Origin: Candidatus Thorarchaeota archaeon
GTDB taxonomy: Archaea > Asgardarchaeota > Thorarchaeia > Thorarchaeales > Thorarchaeaceae
DNA: 39,506 bases
Direction of reading: 5' to 3'
Assembly: GCA_016840855.1 (NCBI GenBank)
Contig: JAEORO010000255.1
Coordinates: forward strand, 1 to 39,506
Within the stretch, counting starts at the first letter, position 1, and the number at the start of each line of letters is the position of its first letter. The position numbers and the translations under genes were made by a program. Below the pieces are notes generated by a model. It saw only the letters and a program-made list of their open reading frames with translations, made no database searches and was not told the DNA's origin. Shown here one piece after another: positions 27,067 to 37,067 of the stretch.

Positions 27067-27492
27067 TTGGAAGTTCTTCTAATATGCCCAGTAAACCCAA
27101 CAGAAGACATCAATAAAGTGACAAAAGCTCTTGAAAATCTCTTAGGCACAGTTGACTCTTTAAAAACAGATAATGATCACGCACAAGAAATCTACCTATC
27201 CTATACTAATCGAAACATACTGAATGTCATACGTCAGACTATTCATGAAACAAGAATTATTGATGCTGCCAGAAAACGATTAAAAAGGAACTGGAATGGC
27301 ACTTCAACAAAAATCTATTTTGATAAACAGGCAGCCTATGCCAAAAAAACACGAATTATTGACGATGATGAGGAGCTGCCGCCTTTAGGTAGTATTGAAA
27401 TCGTTCTTTCTTTTGACTCTGAAACAGAATTCGAGGGATTTGTGAATTGGTTCACGCCACCAACAAAAGATGGAAGAATTGTTCACTACTAA
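27067..27492 (+). CDS. UPF0201/DUF54-type putative RNA-binding protein
   Basis: VNPTEDINKV.KAL.NL; IIDAAR; KQAAY; PPLGSI; WFTPPTKDG; usual partner of the UPF0200 gene. Confidence 0.8.
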   Translation: MEVLLICPVNPTEDINKVTKALENLLGTVDSLKTDNDHAQEIYLSYTNRNILNVIRQTIHETRIIDAARKRLKRNWNGTSTKIYFDKQAAYAKKTRIIDDDEELPPLGSIEIVLSFDSETEFEGFVNWFTPPTKDGRIVHY

Positions 27493-28514
27493 ACACTAAG
27501 TGTAAGTAATTCCCTTACTAATCCGCTATGAACTCTAATCTGAAGAACCTGATTGACTACAAGTCCCATCCTCTCAGCCAAATCTTGAAGGTTCATCTCT
27601 TGGCTTCCACAGATACAGATACTCTCATCACGACGCCGCAGAATAGAATCAACATCTCCAAAGAGCGCTTCAACAAGATCAATAGCTTGAGCGCCTCTAG
27701 TTGAACTTGCTCGTCCATAAGGTGGGTCCGTTATTATAGAGTCACACATACTAACTGGCAATCTTCGAACATCTCCCTGAATGAGATTGTAGTTATTCCC
27801 AATCGAAGAAAGATTCACTTTACTACCAGTAAGCAAACGCCAATTCAAATCAATTCCAACCGTTCTTGCACCTATGAATGATGCTTCACAGAGAATACCA
27901 CCGCCTCCACAGAATGGGTCTAGCACAACTTCGTTTGGTACTACCCGGACAAGATTGCACATTACTCTGGATAAGGTTGTATTCATCATACTAGGATGAA
28001 AGAAAGGTTTTCGTCCTGACTCTCTGCTTCTTAGCATTGGTCTTAGTTTTGATGCAACTGACTTGCATACTCTAACATGCTTCTTAGAAAATATGACAAG
28101 AATGCGTATCTTAGGATAATCGAGATTAACTCTAGATCCAACAACCTGACTGATATGTGCACCAAGCCTGCTTTCAAAATCTAATCGTTCAGCTGCTGAT
28201 GCTCCTTCGCTAGTTGAAATTGTTCTTACAGAAAATGTTTCATCAGAACCGATATTATTTTTCAAAACATCATCGGATAAGCTTTCAATTAAGTCATCTT
28301 GTTCATCTATTTCTGTAAGCACAAGCCCGGCTTCCTTGACCAATGCCGCACGCTCAAGTAAAAATGGAATCATATTCTTTTGAGAATCCATTAGACCAAT
28401 TCGGCCATCCCAATTGAGCACAGCATCACTCTTTGATAAATGAATCAATGCATTTACTTCTGCTTTAGCGGCACTAATGTGCTCACCAGATACATAGACA
28501 AAATATGTGGTCAA
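27489..28514 (-). CDS. trm11: tRNA (guanine-10-N2) methyltransferase, Trm11/TrmG10 (THUMP + MTase); start refined to TTG 28514
   Basis: SGEH; VNLDYP THUMP end; PFFHPS; LDPFCGGGG; TDPPYG; RVHSGL.R. Confidence 0.88.
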   Translation of the reverse strand: MTTYFVYVSGEHISAAKAEVNALIHLSKSDAVLNWDGRIGLMDSQKNMIPFLLERAALVKEAGLVLTEIDEQDDLIESLSDDVLKNNIGSDETFSVRTISTSEGASAAERLDFESRLGAHISQVVGSRVNLDYPKIRILVIFSKKHVRVCKSVASKLRPMLRSRESGRKPFFHPSMMNTTLSRVMCNLVRVVPNEVVLDPFCGGGGILCEASFIGARTVGIDLNWRLLTGSKVNLSSIGNNYNLIQGDVRRLPVSMCDSIITDPPYGRASSTRGAQAIDLVEALFGDVDSILRRRDESICICGSQEMNLQDLAERMGLVVNQVLQIRVHSGLVRELLTLSV

Positions 28515-28521
28515 AAACTCA

Positions 28522-29286
28522 TCACTCGTATAAGTTATCGCCGCCTGCAAAAATACGTTGCATCTCTCCATACAACACATCAATTCCAGTCATTTCTTTT
28601 GCAGAAACTGGCACAATAGCAGTTGCAGTATCCAGTGATTCGAGCATCTCCATGATGGACCTAGAATATTCTCTCCTTAGTCCTTCTGAAGAGGATTCAA
28701 GAGATTCCTCAAGTAGATACAATTCAGAACCCCAGTCTACAATCTCTTCTACTTCCTTCTCAGTTAGAATGTCTGGTTTGCTCAAGACATTTAATTGTGG
28801 GAGACCAAATCGAATGCTAATTGAAATTCCGAGGAGTGTAGATGAAAGATATCCAGTTGGAGTACGCGCTATATTAGAATCAAGCAGATAGAGAGAAAGT
28901 GCTGGGTCATCACCTCTTAGACTAGATACCATCAAAGGTCCCGAGTTACGATATGCAAAAAGCTCCATCTGTCCTGGACAGTCTACAAGCACATAGTCAC
29001 GGTCTGTATCAATAATTTCATCTCTCATATCGTTGACACTACTAACTGCCATATCTAATGAAGCCACCAGAGCTCCATTCGGACCCAAACCAAATGATCT
29101 CATAACTTCGCCATAGTCAACATATTCTCTGATATCAATATCACTTGTATATGGAGGCGAGTCCACACCTGGATCAAGATTCACAACAGCCACACTCAGA
29201 TCTGACCCTACCAGCCACTTTTCAAGGGATGAGGTGAGTAATGACTTTCCTGAACCAGCTGTGCCAACAATGAATGTGAAATACAT
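28522..29286 (-). CDS. GPN-loop GTPase
   Basis: GTAGSGKS; VNLDP; DIR; LGPNG; DCPGQMELF; VLSKPD; VSA. Confidence 0.95.
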   Translation of the reverse strand: MYFTFIVGTAGSGKSLLTSSLEKWLVGSDLSVAVVNLDPGVDSPPYTSDIDIREYVDYGEVMRSFGLGPNGALVASLDMAVSSVNDMRDEIIDTDRDYVLVDCPGQMELFAYRNSGPLMVSSLRGDDPALSLYLLDSNIARTPTGYLSSTLLGISISIRFGLPQLNVLSKPDILTEKEVEEIVDWGSELYLLEESLESSSEGLRREYSRSIMEMLESLDTATAIVPVSAKEMTGIDVLYGEMQRIFAGGDNLYE

Positions 29287-29437
29287 CTATAGTACCGACA
29301 CGAATTGTTAAAGCAAGCTCTTTGAGTTCTTCGGTACGATATCATCTTTCTACAAACTCATCACTTTCAAATTAACCAGCTTCATACAAATTGGTATTTA
29401 CACAACTCTTATAGCGATTCTAAAAGGCTGAGATATT

Positions 29438-30181
29438 ATGGATAATAGTGAGGCTCTCCGAAGGCTAGCAGAAGCAATGGCTGGTGAGATATGCCTCGCA
29501 GAGAATGATCCTGGCGCTGTCATGCGACGATGGCGCGAAAGATTTCATATCTCACAAAAAAATCTCGCCAAGTATCTTAATGTTTCACCTTCTGTCATAA
29601 GCGATTATGAGAGTGGTAGACGAAAATCACCTAGAGTTGAAACCATCAAACGGTTTGTCGAAGGTTTGATTGAGATGGACGCATCTGATGGTGGAAGGGT
29701 AGCTATGGCATTGGAGAAGTTGATTGCTCCCGAAATATCCTCTGATGCAATTCTTGACAGTCGCGAATTTGGATTTCCAATCCCTTCTCGGTTGCTTGTA
29801 GAACACCTCAACTGCAAAGTCCTTACTCATAGGAATTTACTTGATAGGGATATCTATGGCTATACAGCACTTGATAGTATCAAAGCTATTGTTAGTCTCA
29901 CTCCGCAGCAGCTTCTCCGACTTTATGGTGGAACAACTCAACGTGGAGCTATCCTCACTAACGTTACTACTGGCCGTTCTCCAATGGTCGCAATCAAAGC
30001 CAGCCAAATTGGTACTTCTGCTGCAGTAAAACCAGCTGTAGTGATACTTCAAGGAGTGAAAGAGTTAGATCCACTCGCTATCCGAATAGCTGATAGTATA
30101 CATCTACCTTTATGTATATCTGAAATAAGTACAGCAGAAGAATTGGTACGAGAAATTCGGTCATTTAACCCTCAGATGTAA
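29438..30181 (+). CDS. XRE-HTH transcriptional regulator with DRTGG-like C-terminal domain (archaeal COG1709-type)
   Basis: AGEI...PG.VMRRWRE.F..SQ..LA..L.VSPSVISDYESGRRKSP; YGYT.LDS.KAI; VTTGRSPMVAI. Confidence 0.85.
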   Translation: MDNSEALRRLAEAMAGEICLAENDPGAVMRRWRERFHISQKNLAKYLNVSPSVISDYESGRRKSPRVETIKRFVEGLIEMDASDGGRVAMALEKLIAPEISSDAILDSREFGFPIPSRLLVEHLNCKVLTHRNLLDRDIYGYTALDSIKAIVSLTPQQLLRLYGGTTQRGAILTNVTTGRSPMVAIKASQIGTSAAVKPAVVILQGVKELDPLAIRIADSIHLPLCISEISTAEELVREIRSFNPQM

Positions 30182-30206
30182 TACTCATTAAAGAAGGTGA
30201 AATATA

Positions 30207-31502
30207 TTGAAATTTTCTATGGAAATCAATGATCCAATCCATGGTTTTATCGGTATTACTGAAACTGAGGCTAAAATCATCAATTCACTTCCCTATCAGA
30301 GACTACGAAGAATCAAGCAGCTCTCAGGAGGACATTTTGTTTACCCAACAGCAGAACATACTCGTTTTGGCCATTGTATTGGTGTAATGTACCTTGCAGG
30401 GCTCAGCGGTAGAAGGCTTCTGAGTCGAATGGGACTTGGGGATCAGAAGCTACAAGAAGTAAGAATAGCTGGTCTTCTTCATGATATTGGCCATGGTCCT
30501 TTTAGCCATGTCTTTGAGGAAGTTCTCATAGAAAAACGTGGAATGAATCATGAGGATGTTACAGAGTGGATAATACTCAAGAGTGAGTTGGGTGATTTAC
30601 TAGATGGTGATGGAATTCCAAAGAAAAGAATTGCTGACCTCGTTCGAGGTCGCCAAAAGACCAAGAAAGACGCAATCATTGCTGGTATTGTAGCTGGACA
30701 AATTGACTCTGATAAGATGGATTATCTAATTCGAGACTCGTTTTATTGCGGAGTGAATTATGGGCTTGTAGATATTCACCGCCTGATTAATAGTATTGAA
30801 ATCTCAGAGAATTATCAGATGCAATTTGATATCGCGGCTAGAGGTGCATTAGAATCATTTCTTGTAGCAAGGTATGAGATGTTTCTCAATGTATACTATC
30901 ATAAAACGGTACGCAGTGTCGAAGTGATGTTAGTCAAGCTAATAGAGGCTGCGGATAAAGTCCTTGAACTTACAGGTTTCACAGCTCCTGAAGAATTTCT
31001 AAAATTGGATGATATGTCGCTTATATCCAGAATCCGAACTATAGATTCTACTGAATCAGAAGATGCCAAAGAAGCTGTAAAAATGGTCAATCTTCTTGAT
31101 TCTCGTGTCCTATACAAATCCGCCTTTGAAAAAGTCATTCATACACAAGATCGGTTTGTATCTAAAATACTTACGAAAAAGAAGGTACGCGAGAGCATCC
31201 AAGAAGAAATCGCAACGATAGCAGGAGTCAATTGCGATGAGGTGATAGTTGATGTTCCCACTCTTCCCTCAGTTCCATACAACCCTCACCAGCTTGATCC
31301 TATGGAGATAGGTATTTTTGAGGTGTTCGATGGAAAGAAAGTTTCTCACATTCTCTCAGAGTATTCTAATATTGCAGAAATGATGAAAACATACCTTGAT
31401 GTAATTCGAGTATATACGTTCGACAAGAACCGCGTAAAAGTAGGAAGAGCTGCACGTGAAGTCTTCCAAGAAGTTCCTGATACTGCGCTAATACACATGT
31501 AA
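30207..31502 (+). CDS. HD-domain phosphohydrolase (SAMHD1/dGTPase-like)
   Basis: DPIHG; QRLRRIKQL; HTRFGH; LLHDIGHGPFSH; DSDKMDYL.RD; VYYHK. Confidence 0.93.
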   Translation: MKFSMEINDPIHGFIGITETEAKIINSLPYQRLRRIKQLSGGHFVYPTAEHTRFGHCIGVMYLAGLSGRRLLSRMGLGDQKLQEVRIAGLLHDIGHGPFSHVFEEVLIEKRGMNHEDVTEWIILKSELGDLLDGDGIPKKRIADLVRGRQKTKKDAIIAGIVAGQIDSDKMDYLIRDSFYCGVNYGLVDIHRLINSIEISENYQMQFDIAARGALESFLVARYEMFLNVYYHKTVRSVEVMLVKLIEAADKVLELTGFTAPEEFLKLDDMSLISRIRTIDSTESEDAKEAVKMVNLLDSRVLYKSAFEKVIHTQDRFVSKILTKKKVRESIQEEIATIAGVNCDEVIVDVPTLPSVPYNPHQLDPMEIGIFEVFDGKKVSHILSEYSNIAEMMKTYLDVIRVYTFDKNRVKVGRAAREVFQEVPDTALIHM

Positions 31503-31640
31503 TTTTTTCCAAATATATGGTAGTTAATTGTACATTCAACTTGCAAATGAATCATGCAAATTTCTTCATTCTGTGTGGTGGTTATATAGTCACGATATGG
31601 ATTCTACTTTGAACCCAACTTTCCGTCCGGAGCTGAGGAC

Positions 31641-32588
31641 TTGAGCGACGAGCTAACTGAAACTCTTCAGAATATTAAAACCATCACCGGTGTTGAAAAT
31701 GTCGTCTTAATTCAAAAAGATGGGCTCCCTGTAGCAAGCGCAGGAGTATGGTTCAGTAAAGATGAGGTATTTGCTGTAGCATCCTCCACTTGTGCAATCT
31801 TTGGTGTGGCCAAACTTATACATGGAGATTTTAAGTATCTACTAATGGAATCCGATACATCCAAGGTTTTCCTTGCGTCATTACCAAATGATCCAGACTA
31901 CTTTTTAACAGTTACAACAGCGCCTCGTGTTAATCTAGCAGCATTATTCATTGAGATGAAAGACAGCCTCTCTAGGCTATCTTTCCTTCTTAGACAACAT
32001 GTTGATGGAAGACTTCCTCCACTTCGATCGTATAGTCTTGATGAAACTCAAAAAGTCCTCCGTGGATTTGCTGTAGCTGAAGGTCGTGGTACGAGCTATG
32101 GTCTCTCGCGTTCTATGATTTCACTTGATCGATCTCAAGCACTTAGTCTCAGAGCTCTCTTACGTCAAGTCCATGACTGTATCCCTAACATCGGATCAGT
32201 TTTCCTATCCTTGAGCGGTGGAGTCCGAGTTTCATTAGAAGGATTTACTAATGATCGATTGGCTGCAATGTCTTTCGCACTTCATGATGCATCAGAACGA
32301 GTTGTACGAACACTTCGGAACAGCTCACTTCAAACAGTTCTATGTGAAACGGATGAAACACGCCACTTCATCTATGCGGTTCCAAACGGTGTGTTTAGTT
32401 TATGGGTGGACAAAGATAGTCAGAAGCTTGGTTTGATGAGGCTTTTGCTGAAACACTACATTGATGAAATAAGACGAGTCTTAGCAGCAGCAGCAGCAGT
32501 AAAGCCTGCAGTACCAGATGATTTGAAAGAGTTGCTTTTGTCGGGGGGTTCAGACGGCGGCTTGATGTTAACGAGGAGAGAGCCATGA
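31641..32588 (+). CDS. Tandem roadblock/LC7 (MglB-like) domain protein
   Basis: Two repeats: LQNIKTITGVENVVLIQKDGLPVAS...FAVASS...VNLAALFIEM, and LRQVHDCIPNIGSVFLSLSGG...LAAMS...LGLMRLLL. Confidence 0.8.
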   Translation: MSDELTETLQNIKTITGVENVVLIQKDGLPVASAGVWFSKDEVFAVASSTCAIFGVAKLIHGDFKYLLMESDTSKVFLASLPNDPDYFLTVTTAPRVNLAALFIEMKDSLSRLSFLLRQHVDGRLPPLRSYSLDETQKVLRGFAVAEGRGTSYGLSRSMISLDRSQALSLRALLRQVHDCIPNIGSVFLSLSGGVRVSLEGFTNDRLAAMSFALHDASERVVRTLRNSSLQTVLCETDETRHFIYAVPNGVFSLWVDKDSQKLGLMRLLLKHYIDEIRRVLAAAAAVKPAVPDDLKELLLSGGSDGGLMLTRREP

Positions 32589-33505
32589 CATATTCAATCA
32601 TGAAACTAATTGAACTGATGGACGACCAATTTCCACTCCTACTAAACACAATGTTAGAAAGAATACCAGTAATTGTAGCAGGAGAGGATATCGAGCTAGT
32701 TGATGATATCACAGAAAGTTTGACCACCTTATGCGCCCATCGACACAAATTGGTTTTTTGGCGTGATTTCACATCTGAATCAGAGATTCTAGCAGTATGG
32801 GAGGAAGAAAAACACAACTACGAAGTCAGTAGAACTATTGTGTGTGGTCTATCAGGGAATCTTCGACTCGCTATGGACAGAATCTCACATTTTGCAGGTT
32901 GGATTCTTGCAGTGCCATTAGGTATAACAGTACTAGGAGTGCAAGTAACTGAGGGCACACTTCAAGATGTCACTTCTCAAATTCTAAAAAACTCGGCCAA
33001 CTGCGGAATTTTAAGAGTTAGTTCGCCTTCATCTATAAACTTCTCACTTGTCAGACCTTCAAATAGCAGTCTTGAAGTTGAAAAGAAAATTGTAAACAAA
33101 ATTCTGGTCCGAAAGAAGCAATCACTAGAACGTATTAGACGGCTTCTTACAAAATCACTTCGCGGTCTTAATGTATCAAACCATATCCTTACTGCAGTAC
33201 TCAAACTTGATGATGAATCTGAGAAACTCACACAGGATGTTTTCGAAGAGGAAATCAATAATTATGTTCACGCAGCTCGTAGGGCTGTTACTTTACTGTC
33301 ACGTATCCGACTGGCAAGAGAGCTAGGAGCATCCTCTACCTTAACAGAAAGAAACCTCTATGAGGCCATCGGGTGGGATGGAGGAGAACTACCTGATCTG
33401 ATTCAATTCATTAGAGCCGAATGGCATGAAGATTTCTCTGATTGTGTAAAAAGCGGAGCCTTATCGGGTCTAGGAGCATGGGTAGATAGTATGTGGGGGA
33501 CATAA
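32585..33505 (+). CDS. Hypothetical protein, DENN (cDENN/dDENN)-like
   Basis: FPLLLNTMLERIPVIVAGEDIELVDDITESLTTL matches the helix-strand-helix start of core DENN folds; helical C-terminal half; ATGA overlap with the upstream gene. Confidence 0.55.
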   Translation: MTYSIMKLIELMDDQFPLLLNTMLERIPVIVAGEDIELVDDITESLTTLCAHRHKLVFWRDFTSESEILAVWEEEKHNYEVSRTIVCGLSGNLRLAMDRISHFAGWILAVPLGITVLGVQVTEGTLQDVTSQILKNSANCGILRVSSPSSINFSLVRPSNSSLEVEKKIVNKILVRKKQSLERIRRLLTKSLRGLNVSNHILTAVLKLDDESEKLTQDVFEEEINNYVHAARRAVTLLSRIRLARELGASSTLTERNLYEAIGWDGGELPDLIQFIRAEWHEDFSDCVKSGALSGLGAWVDSMWGT

Positions 33506-33519
33506 TTGGAGGTAAAAAA

Positions 33520-34101
33520 ATGATAATCGACTATGGGAATCGTACAGTAGGACTCAAAATAGTCTTTTTTGGACCTGCAATGAGTGGAAAGACAACTTCG
33601 ATTCGATGGTTATTTTCAACTCTGGACTATGCAGAGAAGCTGACCTCAATAGAAAATACTGTAGGACGAACAATGTTTTGTGATTTTGGTACTATTCCTT
33701 TTTCATTGAGTAATAGCTGGACAATAAATGCGCATATCTGGTCAGCTACAGGTCAAGATTTCTACAGGTCAACGCGAGAGGTTGTGTTAGTTGGAGCTGA
33801 TGGAGTGATTTTTGTTGCAGACTCTCAAAAACATCTTTTAGATGAGAATCTCGCAAGCTGGAATGAGCTAATGTCAATGATTGAAGAAGAAGAACGACCT
33901 CTTCCATTAATTGTATGCCTCAATAAACAAGATCTTCGGGACGCAATCCAAGAAGGACAACTTAGAATGCATTTGAGAATACCGCCATCTATACCCATCT
34001 TCAGAAGTGTAGCAAGGGAAGGTCACAATATCATGGAAGCTTTCCAATATCTTTTTCAAAATGCTATGCGCGCAAGCGTTCTTGCCCAACCAATATCATG
34101 A
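33520..34101 (+). CDS. MglA-like small GTPase (start refined to ATG 33520 after GGAGG)
   Basis: KIVFFGPAMSGKTT; GRTMFCDF; SATGQDFY; GADGVIFVADSQ; NKQDL; SVA. Confidence 0.9.
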   Translation: MIIDYGNRTVGLKIVFFGPAMSGKTTSIRWLFSTLDYAEKLTSIENTVGRTMFCDFGTIPFSLSNSWTINAHIWSATGQDFYRSTREVVLVGADGVIFVADSQKHLLDENLASWNELMSMIEEEERPLPLIVCLNKQDLRDAIQEGQLRMHLRIPPSIPIFRSVAREGHNIMEAFQYLFQNAMRASVLAQPIS

Positions 34102-34233
34102 GCGCGAAACTTGCATGTTGGAAATTACCGAGCAAACCATTTATACGACTAGATATGATTTTAGTCGCAGTTCTAGGCTTGGAGAATATATGTTCCCCCA
34201 AAATTATTTCTGAGGCTGTTGATGTTGGATTCT

Positions 34234-35904
34234 ATGCAAAGAAAACCAAATTTTGTATTCGTTACAGGCGGTGTTCTTTCTGGTATTGGAAAAGGAGTCA
34301 CTACTGCGTCTATTGCTAAACTATTCCAATTTCGTGGATTCAATATTCGAATAATCAAGATTGATCCATATCTGAACATTGATCCTGGTACTCTGAACCC
34401 TATCGAGCATGGAGAGGTTTTTGTAACAGACCAAACTTGGATGTTTCAACCAGTTGATAATTTTGAATTCAGAATATCTGAGATTGACCTTGACTTCGGG
34501 ACTTATGAACGATTCACTGGGTTGGAGGTTCATCCATCTCAGAACATCACATCAGGGCAGATATACCTCTCAGTCATTCTTGAAGAGAGAAAAGGAGGTT
34601 TTCTTGGACGCACAGTTCAAATTATCCCACACATAACAGACAGAATTAAACAAAGAATTTGGGAAGTAGTGAAAAAGGAACCAATACCGGACATTCTTCT
34701 TGTAGAAATTGGCGGTACTGTGGGGGACATTGAAGCAATGCCATTTCTTGAGGCTGTCAGACAGCTTGTTCATGAGCTAGGCCATGCTCGTACTGCTGTT
34801 ATACATGTCACCTTAGTACCCTACATCAAAACTGTAGGAGAGTTCAAGACTAAACCAACTCAGCACAGTGTTAGAACTCTTCAGAGTCTAGGTCTCCAGC
34901 CAGATGTTACCATTTGTAGAGCTGAGAGAAAACTCCCAGACTCTGTGAAGGAAAAAATCGCTTTATTCTGTAATGTCCCAAAAGAACATGTTATTTCGAA
35001 TCCAGATATTCCTGTAATTTATCAACTTCCACTATTATTTGAGGATGAAAATCTTGGAAACATACTGGTTGATTACTTTGGGTTAGAATCAAGAAAACCC
35101 GATATAGAATCTTGGTCTAGGATAGTCCGTTCCTTTGACGAAGCATCTGAAACAGTAACAATCGCAATGCCTGGGAAATATACCACACTTGGTGACTCCT
35201 ACAAGAGTATCAATCAAGCACTAGCAGATGCTGCAGCTGCCTGTAGTGCCAAAGTTGAGATAAAATGGATTGAAACAGAAGAACGAAGTACAGAAGATTG
35301 TTTCACCAGTGACCTATCAAATGTAGACGGAATGCTTCTAACTCCTGGTTTCGGAGAACGTGGCGTTGAAGGTATGATCTGTGCAGCTACAATCGCTTTG
35401 AAATCCAAAATTCCTCTCTTGGGCATCTGCTATGGTGCTCAGCTTTCCACAATTGCATTTGCTAGAGTCATTATGGGTTGGAAAGGAGCTCACACAACAG
35501 AAGTAGACTTTGATAGTCTGTATCCTGTTGTTGATTTGATGGATGAACAAAAGCTTACAGAAGATAAGGGTGGCACAATGCGTCTTGGAAGTCATGATGT
35601 TCACATTATAGAAGGTACTTTATTGCACAAAATTTATGGTGAAACCAAGGTCCGTGAGAGATTTCGTCATAGATATCATTTGATAGATCGTTACCTAACC
35701 AAGATGCAAGAAAAAGGCCTGAAGATTTCAGCCTATGACTCCACTAAGAAAATAATCAACGCAATAGAGCTTGCTAATCATCCTTTTTGGATTGGTGTAC
35801 AATATCATCCAGAGTTCAGGTCTCGGCCCGATAACCCTCATCCTCTTTACTTGGGTCTAATAAGGGCCGCAATTGAATACAAAAAGATGAGAGTGAAGAA
35901 ATAG
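34234..35904 (+). CDS. pyrG: CTP synthase (start refined to ATG 34234)
   Basis: VTGGVLSGIGKG; KIDPYLNIDPGT; EIGGTVGDIE; KTKPTQHSV; GICYG; RHRY; QYHPEF. Confidence 0.97.
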   Translation: MQRKPNFVFVTGGVLSGIGKGVTTASIAKLFQFRGFNIRIIKIDPYLNIDPGTLNPIEHGEVFVTDQTWMFQPVDNFEFRISEIDLDFGTYERFTGLEVHPSQNITSGQIYLSVILEERKGGFLGRTVQIIPHITDRIKQRIWEVVKKEPIPDILLVEIGGTVGDIEAMPFLEAVRQLVHELGHARTAVIHVTLVPYIKTVGEFKTKPTQHSVRTLQSLGLQPDVTICRAERKLPDSVKEKIALFCNVPKEHVISNPDIPVIYQLPLLFEDENLGNILVDYFGLESRKPDIESWSRIVRSFDEASETVTIAMPGKYTTLGDSYKSINQALADAAAACSAKVEIKWIETEERSTEDCFTSDLSNVDGMLLTPGFGERGVEGMICAATIALKSKIPLLGICYGAQLSTIAFARVIMGWKGAHTTEVDFDSLYPVVDLMDEQKLTEDKGGTMRLGSHDVHIIEGTLLHKIYGETKVRERFRHRYHLIDRYLTKMQEKGLKISAYDSTKKIINAIELANHPFWIGVQYHPEFRSRPDNPHPLYLGLIRAAIEYKKMRVKK

Positions 35905-37067
35905 TGGAAAGAACCCTCGATAAACTACTATCAAAATTAGTCGAAGAAATTGAGCACATCGAGGTGACAAGAGAAGGATTTGGGGAAGTTCTCAGAAATA
36001 TCAGAAATCAAATCGATTTGAGTAGATTTCCAGGAATCGCAACAAATATTATCGATAAACAGCTATACACAAAGATAGAACCTACTAGCCTTTCAGGTCT
36101 TCGAATAGCTGGAATAGATGGGGGTTTAGTCCGGAAACGTTTCAGGTCTATGGATTTAGTTTTGACGAGGGGCGTTGCAGTTGTATTTCAATTTGGTGCA
36201 GAAGAAGGTCCTACTGTTGATTTCTATCCAGATGCTTTTCCAGAACCAAAAATCAGTCCATTACTTCTAACACTGTCTGCAATAGAGCTGGAACAGCTTG
36301 CTTCACTAGAGCGTATTGCAGCGGAACTTAAAGTTGCGTTGTCAATTCTTGAGGAATACCGTTCAGATTTGGTTCTTCTCGATGGATCGTTGTTTTATCA
36401 TCCTAGAGACCGCCCTCCAGCTGGATCTATCGTTTATGAGAAGTTTCAAGAAATCCTATCATTGTATAAACAACTATATCACAAAGCTCGGAAAAAAGGC
36501 ACAACTTTAGTAGGCATAATCAAAGATAGTAAATCAACACGAGTCGCGGCTATAATGGGAGAGATACTACCACACATTGTTCGAAAACCTGCTATTTTTG
36601 AAATGATGCAAGGTGTTGACTATAGATGGCTGCTCAAGATATCAAGAGACTGTGATTTACTTGACACATTTCTTGAACAAGGAGAGCGGTCTTTCGTCTT
36701 CCGATACTCATCAGAACTACTCTACAATGCAAACTCAATGAGTGACACTTCTTCGAACTGGGCATCATCAATCTGGGTCACTTATCTGAAAACAGCAAGA
36801 GATGATTTGCCAATAAGAGTAGAGTTCCTTTCAGCAGGGGATGATGAAACAACCACTGATAGATTAAACAAGGCATTATCAGCAATACTTCCACTTTCAT
36901 CTCAACACCCCGAATATGGTATTCCTGCTCCGATTCTTGAAGCTGATGCTCGAGCAAAGATAACTGCAAATGAAACTCGTTTAATCATAGACCGGCTAAT
37001 GGCACTTTCTGGACTCACTTACCTGACCCTTGAAAAAAGACGTTCAAGAAACCCGTTTGGAGGCTAA
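35904..37067 (+). CDS. nurA: NurA-family 5'-3' nuclease
   Basis: IAGIDGG; LLDGS; VGIIKDS; YGIPAPILEAD.RAKI; upstream of herA. Confidence 0.9.
   Translation: MERTLDKLLSKLVEEIEHIEVTREGFGEVLRNIRNQIDLSRFPGIATNIIDKQLYTKIEPTSLSGLRIAGIDGGLVRKRFRSMDLVLTRGVAVVFQFGAEEGPTVDFYPDAFPEPKISPLLLTLSAIELEQLASLERIAAELKVALSILEEYRSDLVLLDGSLFYHPRDRPPAGSIVYEKFQEILSLYKQLYHKARKKGTTLVGIIKDSKSTRVAAIMGEILPHIVRKPAIFEMMQGVDYRWLLKISRDCDLLDTFLEQGERSFVFRYSSELLYNANSMSDTSSNWASSIWVTYLKTARDDLPIRVEFLSAGDDETTTDRLNKALSAILPLSSQHPEYGIPAPILEADARAKITANETRLIIDRLMALSGLTYLTLEKRRSRNPFGG

Follow-up and report, generated by a model that had tools for sequence, protein, structure and literature searches.

Introduction

In eukaryotes, membranes and nutrient signaling are organized by Rab, Arf and Rag GTPases, and these in turn are regulated by proteins of the DENN, longin and roadblock types. 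In the accessible part of its description, the DENN module is tripartite, and is made up of longin/u-DENN, DENN and d-DENN domains (Zhang et al., 2012, PMC3521125). A related prokaryotic system is a predicted operon that, in the portions of the preprint that were available, is conserved in the majority of Asgard archaea and comprises a Roadblock-superfamily protein, a small GTPase and a DENN-domain protein, for the last of which a GEF-like role was proposed by analogy with folliculin (Liu et al., 2020). Excerpts of further studies name DENN domains as part of the set of Asgard homologues and delimit groups of Asgard MglA proteins (Vargová et al.), discuss Asgard longins of the folliculin/SMCR8 type (a Traffic paper of 2025), describe solved structures of Asgard roadblock and Rab-like proteins and a core fold common to roadblock and longin (Tran et al., 2024), and mention that a roadblock dimer from Thorarchaeota has been modeled on its GTPase with AlphaFold3 (an MglA-MglB paper of 2026). 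No biochemical study of an Asgard DENN protein was found in literature searches on Asgard and DENN. A DENN protein from a prokaryote, with a roadblock protein and an MglA-type GTPase encoded alongside it, is a simple setting in which direct measurements could reveal what the DENN fold originally did, whether as an exchange factor, as a GAP scaffold or as an adaptor.

The locus considered here lies in a 39,506-nucleotide stretch of Candidatus Thorarchaeota DNA (contig JAEORO010000255.1), termed the window. It resembles the operon of Liu et al. (2020), as far as the latter is described in the available text, in possessing three adjacent, co-oriented and conserved genes, with the correspondence being one of composition and not of accession. 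Thus, judged from the same text, the three-gene Asgard operon and its conservation are already in print, and the analogy between the operon and folliculin also is not new. Since the operon and its conservation have already been published, the value of the window lies in confirmation rather than discovery. The data presented below indicate that the central gene very probably specifies the DENN-domain subunit, with core DENN and d-DENN domains and no longin/u-DENN domain, of a conserved Asgard module in which the other members are a tandem roadblock protein and an MglA-type GTPase.

Results

Identification of the DENN Gene

The locus consists of three tightly packed open reading frames on the plus strand:

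31641..32588, plus strand: tandem roadblock (MglB/LAMTOR2-like) protein, first gene of the operon, 315 aa, TTG start
32585..33505, plus strand: gene for a predicted longin-less DENN protein (core DENN plus d-DENN), 306 aa, assigned from the ORF, the AlphaFold2 model and structural matches to DENN modules
33520..34101, plus strand: small GTPase of MglA type by profile match to MglA, third gene of the operon, 193 aa from ATG 33520

The DENN reading frame extends from the ATG at 32585 to a TAA stop codon at 33503-33505 and encodes 306 residues, among which the peptide FPLLLNTMLERIPVIVAGEDIELVDDITESLTTL that was quoted in the initial annotation occupies positions 16-49. The choice of start codon is supported by a ribosome-binding-like run, GAGGAGAGAG, at 32573-32582 ahead of the ATG, by the sequence ATGA at 32585-32588 in which this codon overlaps the TGA of the upstream roadblock frame, and by homologues of ~287-311 aa that align from residue 1 in a 36-sequence alignment (A1). 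The G+C content of the whole window is ~35-42%.

A word-indexed search identified 227 relatives of the DENN protein at E ≤ 1e-3 among 2874 candidates. The best 120 of these 227 are 278-306 aa in length and 77-94% identical to the window protein, and the named entries among these 120 are all designated 'hypothetical protein' from Candidatus Thorarchaeota, with one labeled Odinarchaeota. An exhaustive HMMER search of 1.84 billion representatives of 50%-identity clusters recovered 63 relatives at E ≤ 1e-3, 44 at ≤ 1e-10 and 20 at ≤ 1e-30, of which the full-length matches are ~290-310 aa with identities down to ~20%. Residues R26, P28 and E75 are invariant in A1 (n = 36), and R53, R83, W106, E166, E211 and E279 are retained in ≥90% of its sequences. 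The A1 profile detected the family in 169 of 301 sampled Asgard genomes, mostly as one copy per genome, including 67 of 90 high-quality genomes and 38 of 70 genera. In view of the numerous relatives and of these matches within the same phylum, the DENN gene is real and not a chance ORF.

Predicted Fold of the DENN Protein

An AlphaFold2 model of the DENN protein that was built on A1 has a mean pLDDT of 89.3 and a pTM of 0.85, with values below 50 confined to residues 293-306. Two domains are apparent in the model:

32585..33064, plus strand: predicted core DENN α/β domain, ~residues 1-160, with a conserved RxPIxVxG strand motif in which R26 and P28 are invariant
33074..33439, plus strand: predicted helical d-DENN domain, ~residues 164-285, from the helices of the model

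The core domain comprises H5-24, E29-33, H36-50, E54-58, H65-77, E84-88 and H90-99, followed by more strands, H123-136 and strands to residue 155, and the d-DENN domain is formed by H164-192, H199-205, H209-246, H255-262 and H269-280. The first three elements, of which the strand reads PVIVA, reproduce the succession of helix, hydrophobic strand and helix that had been deduced for the start of the protein from its letters. As the first helix begins at residue 5 of 306 and the first strand is located at 29-33, there is no space for an N-terminal longin domain (~120-150 aa). Of the elements of the tripartite module, an N-terminal longin in the same chain is therefore missing, and on the evidence of the model the protein has no longin/u-DENN domain within its own polypeptide. 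The earlier proposal to this effect accordingly stands, both in view of the model and of homologues of ~290-310 aa that align with the window protein from its first residue. Relatives of 537-2000 aa were absent among 5415 candidates, which is weak evidence on this point.

The model was compared with solved structures. DENN-module proteins furnished the eight best of 987 chains in one comparison and the five best of 48,161 chains in a second, and in both cases only DENN-module matches covered both domains, from residue 1 to ~285. A Foldseek search of the PDB gave no match at E ≤ 1e-3. The top five rows of this search were all folliculin C-terminal (DENN) chains with E values of 6.1e-3 to 8.2e-3 and probabilities of 0.92-0.99; C9orf72, DENND1A, DENND10 and DENND1B appeared lower down, among many low-probability AAA+/RecA-like ATPases. 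Thus, the check by structure prediction and Foldseek that was suggested in the initial annotation ranked folliculin first and C9orf72 and DENND1B behind it. The mixture of DENN chains and ATPases in the search implies that the N-terminal domain, as modeled, is a common P-loop-like α/β sandwich, with the two-domain arrangement being the feature of the model that is specific to DENN proteins. PilT- and CpaF-type ATPases were situated further down the Foldseek list with probabilities of 0.47-0.63.

Sequence-based family assignments were sparse. The window DENN protein matched none of the Pfam families at E ≤ 0.1. Two of the 36 family members matched Pfam Folliculin_C below threshold (best E 4.8e-4); in one member, P0131, residues 5-62 align with positions 4-62 of the 227 in Folliculin_C with 20.2 bits versus a cut-off of 27 bits. 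The matching part of P0131 is the same stretch that the initial annotation had singled out. Pfam DENN was matched by one of the 36 members at E 0.093. An NCBIfam scan of the DENN protein produced solely a chance-level match to CobZ (E 0.056), and sequence searches of the PDB with the protein and with its profile similarly yielded chance-level matches only (DipZ, E 2.4; ferritin, E 0.015). Look-alikes of the protein that were retrieved with a protein language model belong to C9orf72-like, Folliculin_C/SMCR8_C, SPA, DENND11 and Avl9, which are families of the DENN clan. Njmu-R1, for which the clan was unchecked, also was among the look-alikes.

An alternative interpretation is that the protein is not homologous to DENN, but instead joins a degenerate P-loop/RecA-like ATPase core, of the secretion ATPase or RuvB-like helicase type, to an unrelated helical bundle, in which case the likeness to DENN would be convergent or confined to the level of the fold. 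This interpretation is very improbable. A Walker A motif does not follow strand 1 in A1, the top ranks of the two structural searches are occupied by DENN modules that span both domains, and the Foldseek probability reached 0.99 for folliculin, whereas the clamp-loader and ClpB chains that come next in the list do not exceed 0.41. Moreover, with Njmu-R1 set aside, the language-model look-alikes are exclusively DENN-clan families, the Folliculin_C match in P0131 is collinear, and the neighboring genes encode a small GTPase and a roadblock protein as expected for a regulator of GTPases. The reading of the N-terminal domain as a P-loop ATPase was rejected on these grounds. Overall, the product of the ORF can be designated with high confidence as a predicted core-DENN plus d-DENN protein in which, as in the DENN superfamily, an α/β core DENN domain precedes an all-helical d-DENN domain and the whole can be superposed on solved DENN modules. 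The DENN-like identity that was first suggested from the sequence is upheld by the structural searches, the clan of the look-alikes and the two sub-threshold Folliculin_C matches, and the portions of the literature cited above are in agreement.

Upstream Roadblock Protein

The product of the first gene matches Pfam Robl_LC7 at residues 7-91 (E 1.4e-10). A profile of 19 roadblock orthologues (A2) extended the assignment to both halves of the protein: positions 8-121 match the Thorarchaeota roadblock protein 7f8m_A (E 1.4e-6), positions 172-292 match the Prometheoarchaeum roadblock protein 9jue_D (E 5.1e-9), and positions 163-298 match MglB (6hjm/6h5b/6izw) with E values of 4-6e-4. The AlphaFold2 model (pLDDT 78.2) contains two α-ββ-α-βββ-α units, the first with H2-13, E18-25, E30-35, H40-61, three strands and H99-121, and the second with H164-180, two strands, H205-226, three strands and H263-285. 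A disordered linker (145-156) lies between the units, and a short helix of low confidence is located at the C-terminus. The best Foldseek matches of the model were Asgard roadblock proteins, LAMTOR2/p14 and MglB, with E values of ~1e-6 to 2e-5 and target TM scores of 0.7-0.86. Thus, the upstream product is a tandem roadblock protein according to Pfam, the orthologue profile, the model and Foldseek, and the roadblock pair noted initially at this position is confirmed by the last three of these. In longin domains the order of secondary structure is ββ-α-βββ-αα, without an N-terminal helix. Both halves of the upstream protein, as modeled, open with a helix, which is the roadblock order and not that of longin.

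Downstream MglA-Type GTPase

The DENN and GTPase genes are separated by 14 nt. The sequence GGAGGT is contained in this gap, at 33508-33513, and precedes the ATG at 33520. Eleven of 19 orthologue rows begin at the methionine of this ATG, the window protein having been entered from that residue and the remaining rows having been called as longest ORFs. The longest version of the ORF would instead begin at an in-frame GTG, at 33493.

The GTPase scored against the Pfam small-GTPase models Arf, Roc, Ras and Gtr1_RagA. A profile of the 19 GTPase orthologues (A3) matched MglA (3t12_A) at E 4.3e-43 with 150 bits, and the next family was Rab11B at E 1.3e-13. In a pairwise alignment the GPxxSGKTT, switch I RT(M/L)F.DF, TGQ/PGQ and NKxD motifs are in register with those of Thermus MglA 3t12. 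Residues R50, T51, G78 and Q79 are invariant in A3, with S/T-A-T-G-Q at G3. The R50-T51 pair of switch I and a Thr/Ser, in place of Asp, at the start of the xxxGQ sequence of G3 are features that we take to be hallmarks of MglA, and the GTPase combines both with a best profile match to MglA and an adjacent roadblock gene. MglA uses a switch I arginine and a glutamine, both of which are kept in the window GTPase. A Rab-, Arf- or Rag-like identity, as the Pfam matches might have implied, was rejected on the basis of the far better profile match to MglA, and the protein is classified by its profile as an MglA-type and not a Rab-like GTPase. From the profiles of the neighboring genes, the products of the operon are therefore an MglB-like pseudo-dimer in a single chain, a DENN protein and a GTPase of the MglA type.

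Conservation and Setting of the Operon

The order roadblock-DENN-GTPase on one strand was observed with phmmer in all 18 distant Asgard loci considered, which derive from ten family-level groups, nine of them in addition to that of the window. With starts taken from the longest ORFs, the roadblock and DENN genes are ≤23 nt apart in 17 of the 18 loci and overlap in eight. At the level of family groups, the DENN gene was detected in 74 of 76 genomes of the window's own group, 57 of 68 in f9, 15 of 19 in f12, 4 of 4 in both f3 and f15, and 5 of 7 in f24; the A1 profile did not find it among the searched genomes of f5 (0 of 28), f14 (0 of 11) and f27 (0 of 11). The tandem-roadblock profile matched 208 of 301 genomes at E ≤ 1e-10. 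Strong matches (E below ~1e-80) occur in the same families as DENN, and those at E ~1e-11 in other families look like other roadblock paralogues. Of the three f12 loci examined that hold a second tandem-roadblock gene, two (L052 and L053) have an MglA-type gene immediately behind it and lack a DENN gene; a GTPase ORF was not detected at the third (L055).

The operon is flanked by unrelated housekeeping genes:

27489-28583, minus strand: RMKL-like methyltransferase
28522-29286, minus strand: GPN-loop/ATP_bind_1 GTPase
29438-30181: XRE-type HTH protein
30207-31502: HD-domain phosphohydrolase
34219-35904: CTP synthase
35904-37067: NurA

A scan of 31300-34400 for sigma-70 promoters and intrinsic terminators, which is not designed for archaeal promoters, returned four and two candidates compared to 7.4±2.5 and 2.2±1.5, respectively, in shuffled sequence.

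Discussion

Proposed Function of the Three Proteins

The three products of the operon may jointly constitute a GTPase switch. Judged from its homology to MglB, the tandem roadblock protein would be a preformed pseudo-dimer that binds to the GTPase and regulates its hydrolysis of GTP, and the DENN protein would be a second regulator within this switch. One option is that the latter is a nucleotide exchange factor which grips the switch regions with the core DENN domain in the manner of DENND1 and Rab35. Alternatively, it might be a scaffold that joins the roadblock unit in a two-part roadblock-plus-DENN regulator, by analogy with folliculin-FNIP or C9orf72-SMCR8. At the genomic level, the DENN gene is linked to that of the GTPase in all 18 loci. 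Direct regulation of the co-encoded GTPase by the DENN protein, whether as exchange factor or as scaffold, is somewhat favored.

Proposed Relationship of the Roadblock Pair to the Missing Longin

The initial annotation further envisaged that the roadblock pair provides the longin function in trans, as a pre-fusion state of the longin-DENN architecture. The tandem roadblock protein would then bind the DENN protein in place of the missing longin/u-DENN domain to generate a split regulator of the GTPase, probably a GAP, akin to folliculin/FNIP or C9orf72/SMCR8, and the adjacent genes would be the ancestral unfused form of longin-DENN. We regard this explanation as unlikely. Its attraction is that the gene order from roadblock to DENN equals the order from longin to DENN between N- and C-termini, that the stop and start codons of the two genes overlap in the window and in the eight distant loci noted above, that the roadblock orthologue and DENN have a common phyletic pattern, and that roadblock and longin share a core fold according to the available part of Tran et al. 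(2024). Against this, both upstream domains have roadblock topology with the N-terminal helix first and not longin topology, so that simple read-through would not give a longin-DENN protein; there are two roadblock domains, not one, ahead of DENN; the partner expected by homology for an MglB-like roadblock pseudo-dimer is an MglA-type GTPase; and the paralogous operon of tandem roadblock and MglA genes exists without a DENN gene. A predicted complex of the roadblock and DENN proteins from A2 and A1 gave run scores of 0.01 and 0.29 compared to a mark of 0.32, without controls, and counts neither way.

Distant relatives in two further family-level groups also bear on the origin of the architecture. 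In f22 and f30 the only A1 matches are weak (E 1e-4 to 9e-7) and are found in five ORFs of 297-397 aa, of which four measure 361-397 aa. The N-terminal motif of DENN aligns at residues 155-278 of these proteins, and at 155-216 in those of 361-397 aa, with 150-215 residues ahead of it. The N-terminal parts weakly match Folliculin (E 0.0047) or C9orf72-like (E 0.0099), below the Pfam thresholds, and for this reason the relatives look like fused forms. A pre-fusion history would accommodate these proteins as follows. DENN would have originated alongside an MglA-type GTPase and a pseudo-dimer of roadblock domains, as their partner, translational coupling of the roadblock and DENN genes would have led to a two-part regulator, and proteins of the folliculin/FNIP, C9orf72/SMCR8 and DENND types would descend from fusion of the pair, with the relatives of 361-397 aa and their additional N-terminal part as intermediates. 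However, the putative fused relatives have no roadblock or GTPase gene as a neighbor, none of their domain calls reaches the Pfam thresholds, and no phylogeny roots the split forms before the fused forms. Physical pairing of the roadblock and DENN proteins appears doubtful, and descent of eukaryotic longin-DENN regulators from a roadblock-DENN-MglA operon as their ancestral unfused form is decidedly unlikely. The interpretation in the initial annotation, taken as a whole, is supported in part. Tight linkage, in the form of invariant order in 18 of 18 loci, overlapping genes and phyletic pattern, is compatible with its trans-longin proposal, and roadblock topology, MglA as the expected partner and the DENN-less paralogous operon speak against that proposal. 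In its strict form the proposal is slightly disfavored.

Comparison with Known Systems

The module in the window has a bearing on the origin of the longin-DENN architecture and is an attractive target for bench studies. Three details can be added to the published picture, namely that the GTPase of the operon is of MglA type rather than Rab-like by its profile, that a paralogous operon of tandem-roadblock and MglA genes without DENN is present in one Asgard family, and that distant, longer and apparently fused DENN relatives exist outside such operons in two other families.

In folliculin a longin domain is present at the N-terminus of the same chain, and the partner of folliculin, FNIP, likewise is a longin-DENN protein. 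The C-terminal DENN domain of folliculin (3v42; FLCN-FNIP2 in 6nzd, 6ulg and 8dhb) is 12-14% identical to the window protein, and the partner GTPases of folliculin are Rag heterodimers, whereas that of the window operon is MglA-type by its profile. The GEF modules of DENND1A/B with Rab35 (3tw8, 6ekk) and DENND10 in Commander (8p0v) possess their own N-terminal longin/u-DENN lobe, and their identity to the window protein is 9-10%. The title of entry 8p0v describes DENND10 only as part of the Commander complex.

With the operon described in the accessible text of Liu et al. (2020), the locus shares the same three components in a putative operon, occurrence in many Asgard lineages, a DENN protein that is not fused to a partner in the eukaryotic manner, and a GTPase outside the Rag family. 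Within the scope of that text there is probably no essential difference, apart from the MglA-type rather than Rab-like GTPase and a tandem roadblock protein that is closest to Asgard roadblock proteins, LAMTOR2 and MglB.

The bacterial MglA-MglB switch (3t12, 6h5b, 6izw) provides the remaining comparison. The word 'DENN' does not occur in the available portion of one paper on the bacterial MglA-MglB system. The window GTPase shares the P-loop, the switch I Arg-Thr pair and the TGQ/PGQ motifs of MglA, and roadblock domains resembling those of MglB make up the upstream protein. Unlike the bacterial switch, the window locus combines the two roadblock domains in a single chain, and its DENN gene separates the roadblock gene from that of the GTPase.

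Start of the GTPase gene and surroundings of the operon

The longest open reading frame for the MglA-type GTPase in the window begins at a GTG codon at 33493, which would produce a 13-nt overlap with the DENN gene. The ATG codon at 33520 is preceded by GGAGGT at 33508-33513 and coincides with the initial methionine in 11 of the 19 rows of the GTPase orthologue alignment, a count that includes the window GTPase itself as entered from this ATG. Judged by the aligned sequences, the ATG at 33520 fits better as the start codon than the GTG at 33493.

The tandem roadblock protein encoded upstream ends in the following element.

Window 32517-32588, + strand: C-terminal end of the tandem roadblock protein (residues 293-315), with a short low-confidence helix

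The helix spans residues 293-300, C-terminal to the second roadblock domain, and has the consensus P..D.K..L..L. A 2026 MglA-MglB paper describes C-terminal helices of archaeal roadblock proteins as predicted binders of their GTPase.

The operon is flanked by housekeeping genes (27489-31502 and 34219-37067), namely those for an RMKL-like methyltransferase, a GPN-loop (ATP_bind_1) GTPase, an XRE-type HTH protein, an HD-domain phosphohydrolase with an HD_assoc_2 region, CTP synthase and NurA. The GTG start of NurA at 35904 shares one nucleotide with the CTP synthase stop codon.

Related loci in other Asgard families

Family-level group f12 possesses second tandem-roadblock genes that were recovered by hmmsearch against A2, the profile of 19 tandem-roadblock orthologues, with E-values of about 1e-89 to 1e-91.

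L052:1492-3031, + strand: second tandem-roadblock gene and MglA-type GTPase gene
L053:1498-3024, + strand: second tandem-roadblock gene and MglA-type GTPase gene
L055:1489-2469, + strand: second tandem-roadblock gene

In L052 and L053 no DENN gene separates the roadblock gene from the GTPase gene, which follows it within 7-8 nt, and no GTPase ORF was detected 3′ of the roadblock gene in L055. The DENN profile search gave no matches in two f12 genomes with second roadblock genes (81% and 84% complete).

Families f22 and f30 encode distant DENN relatives of 361-397 amino acids.

L063:1030-2115, - strand: distant DENN relative
L064:1147-2340, - strand: distant DENN relative
L066:871-2046, + strand: distant DENN relative
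L067:1084-2181, - strand: distant DENN relative

The start of the DENN N-terminal motif in these proteins falls at residue 155-216. The Pfam matches of the N-terminal parts, to Folliculin (E 0.0047) or C9orf72-like (E 0.0099), are sub-threshold. The adjoining genes specify an ArsB-like transporter, a DNA methylase and UbiA, and are unrelated to GTPases. The preprint by Liu et al. (2020) mentions fused longin-DENN proteins, and these longer relatives may be those proteins.
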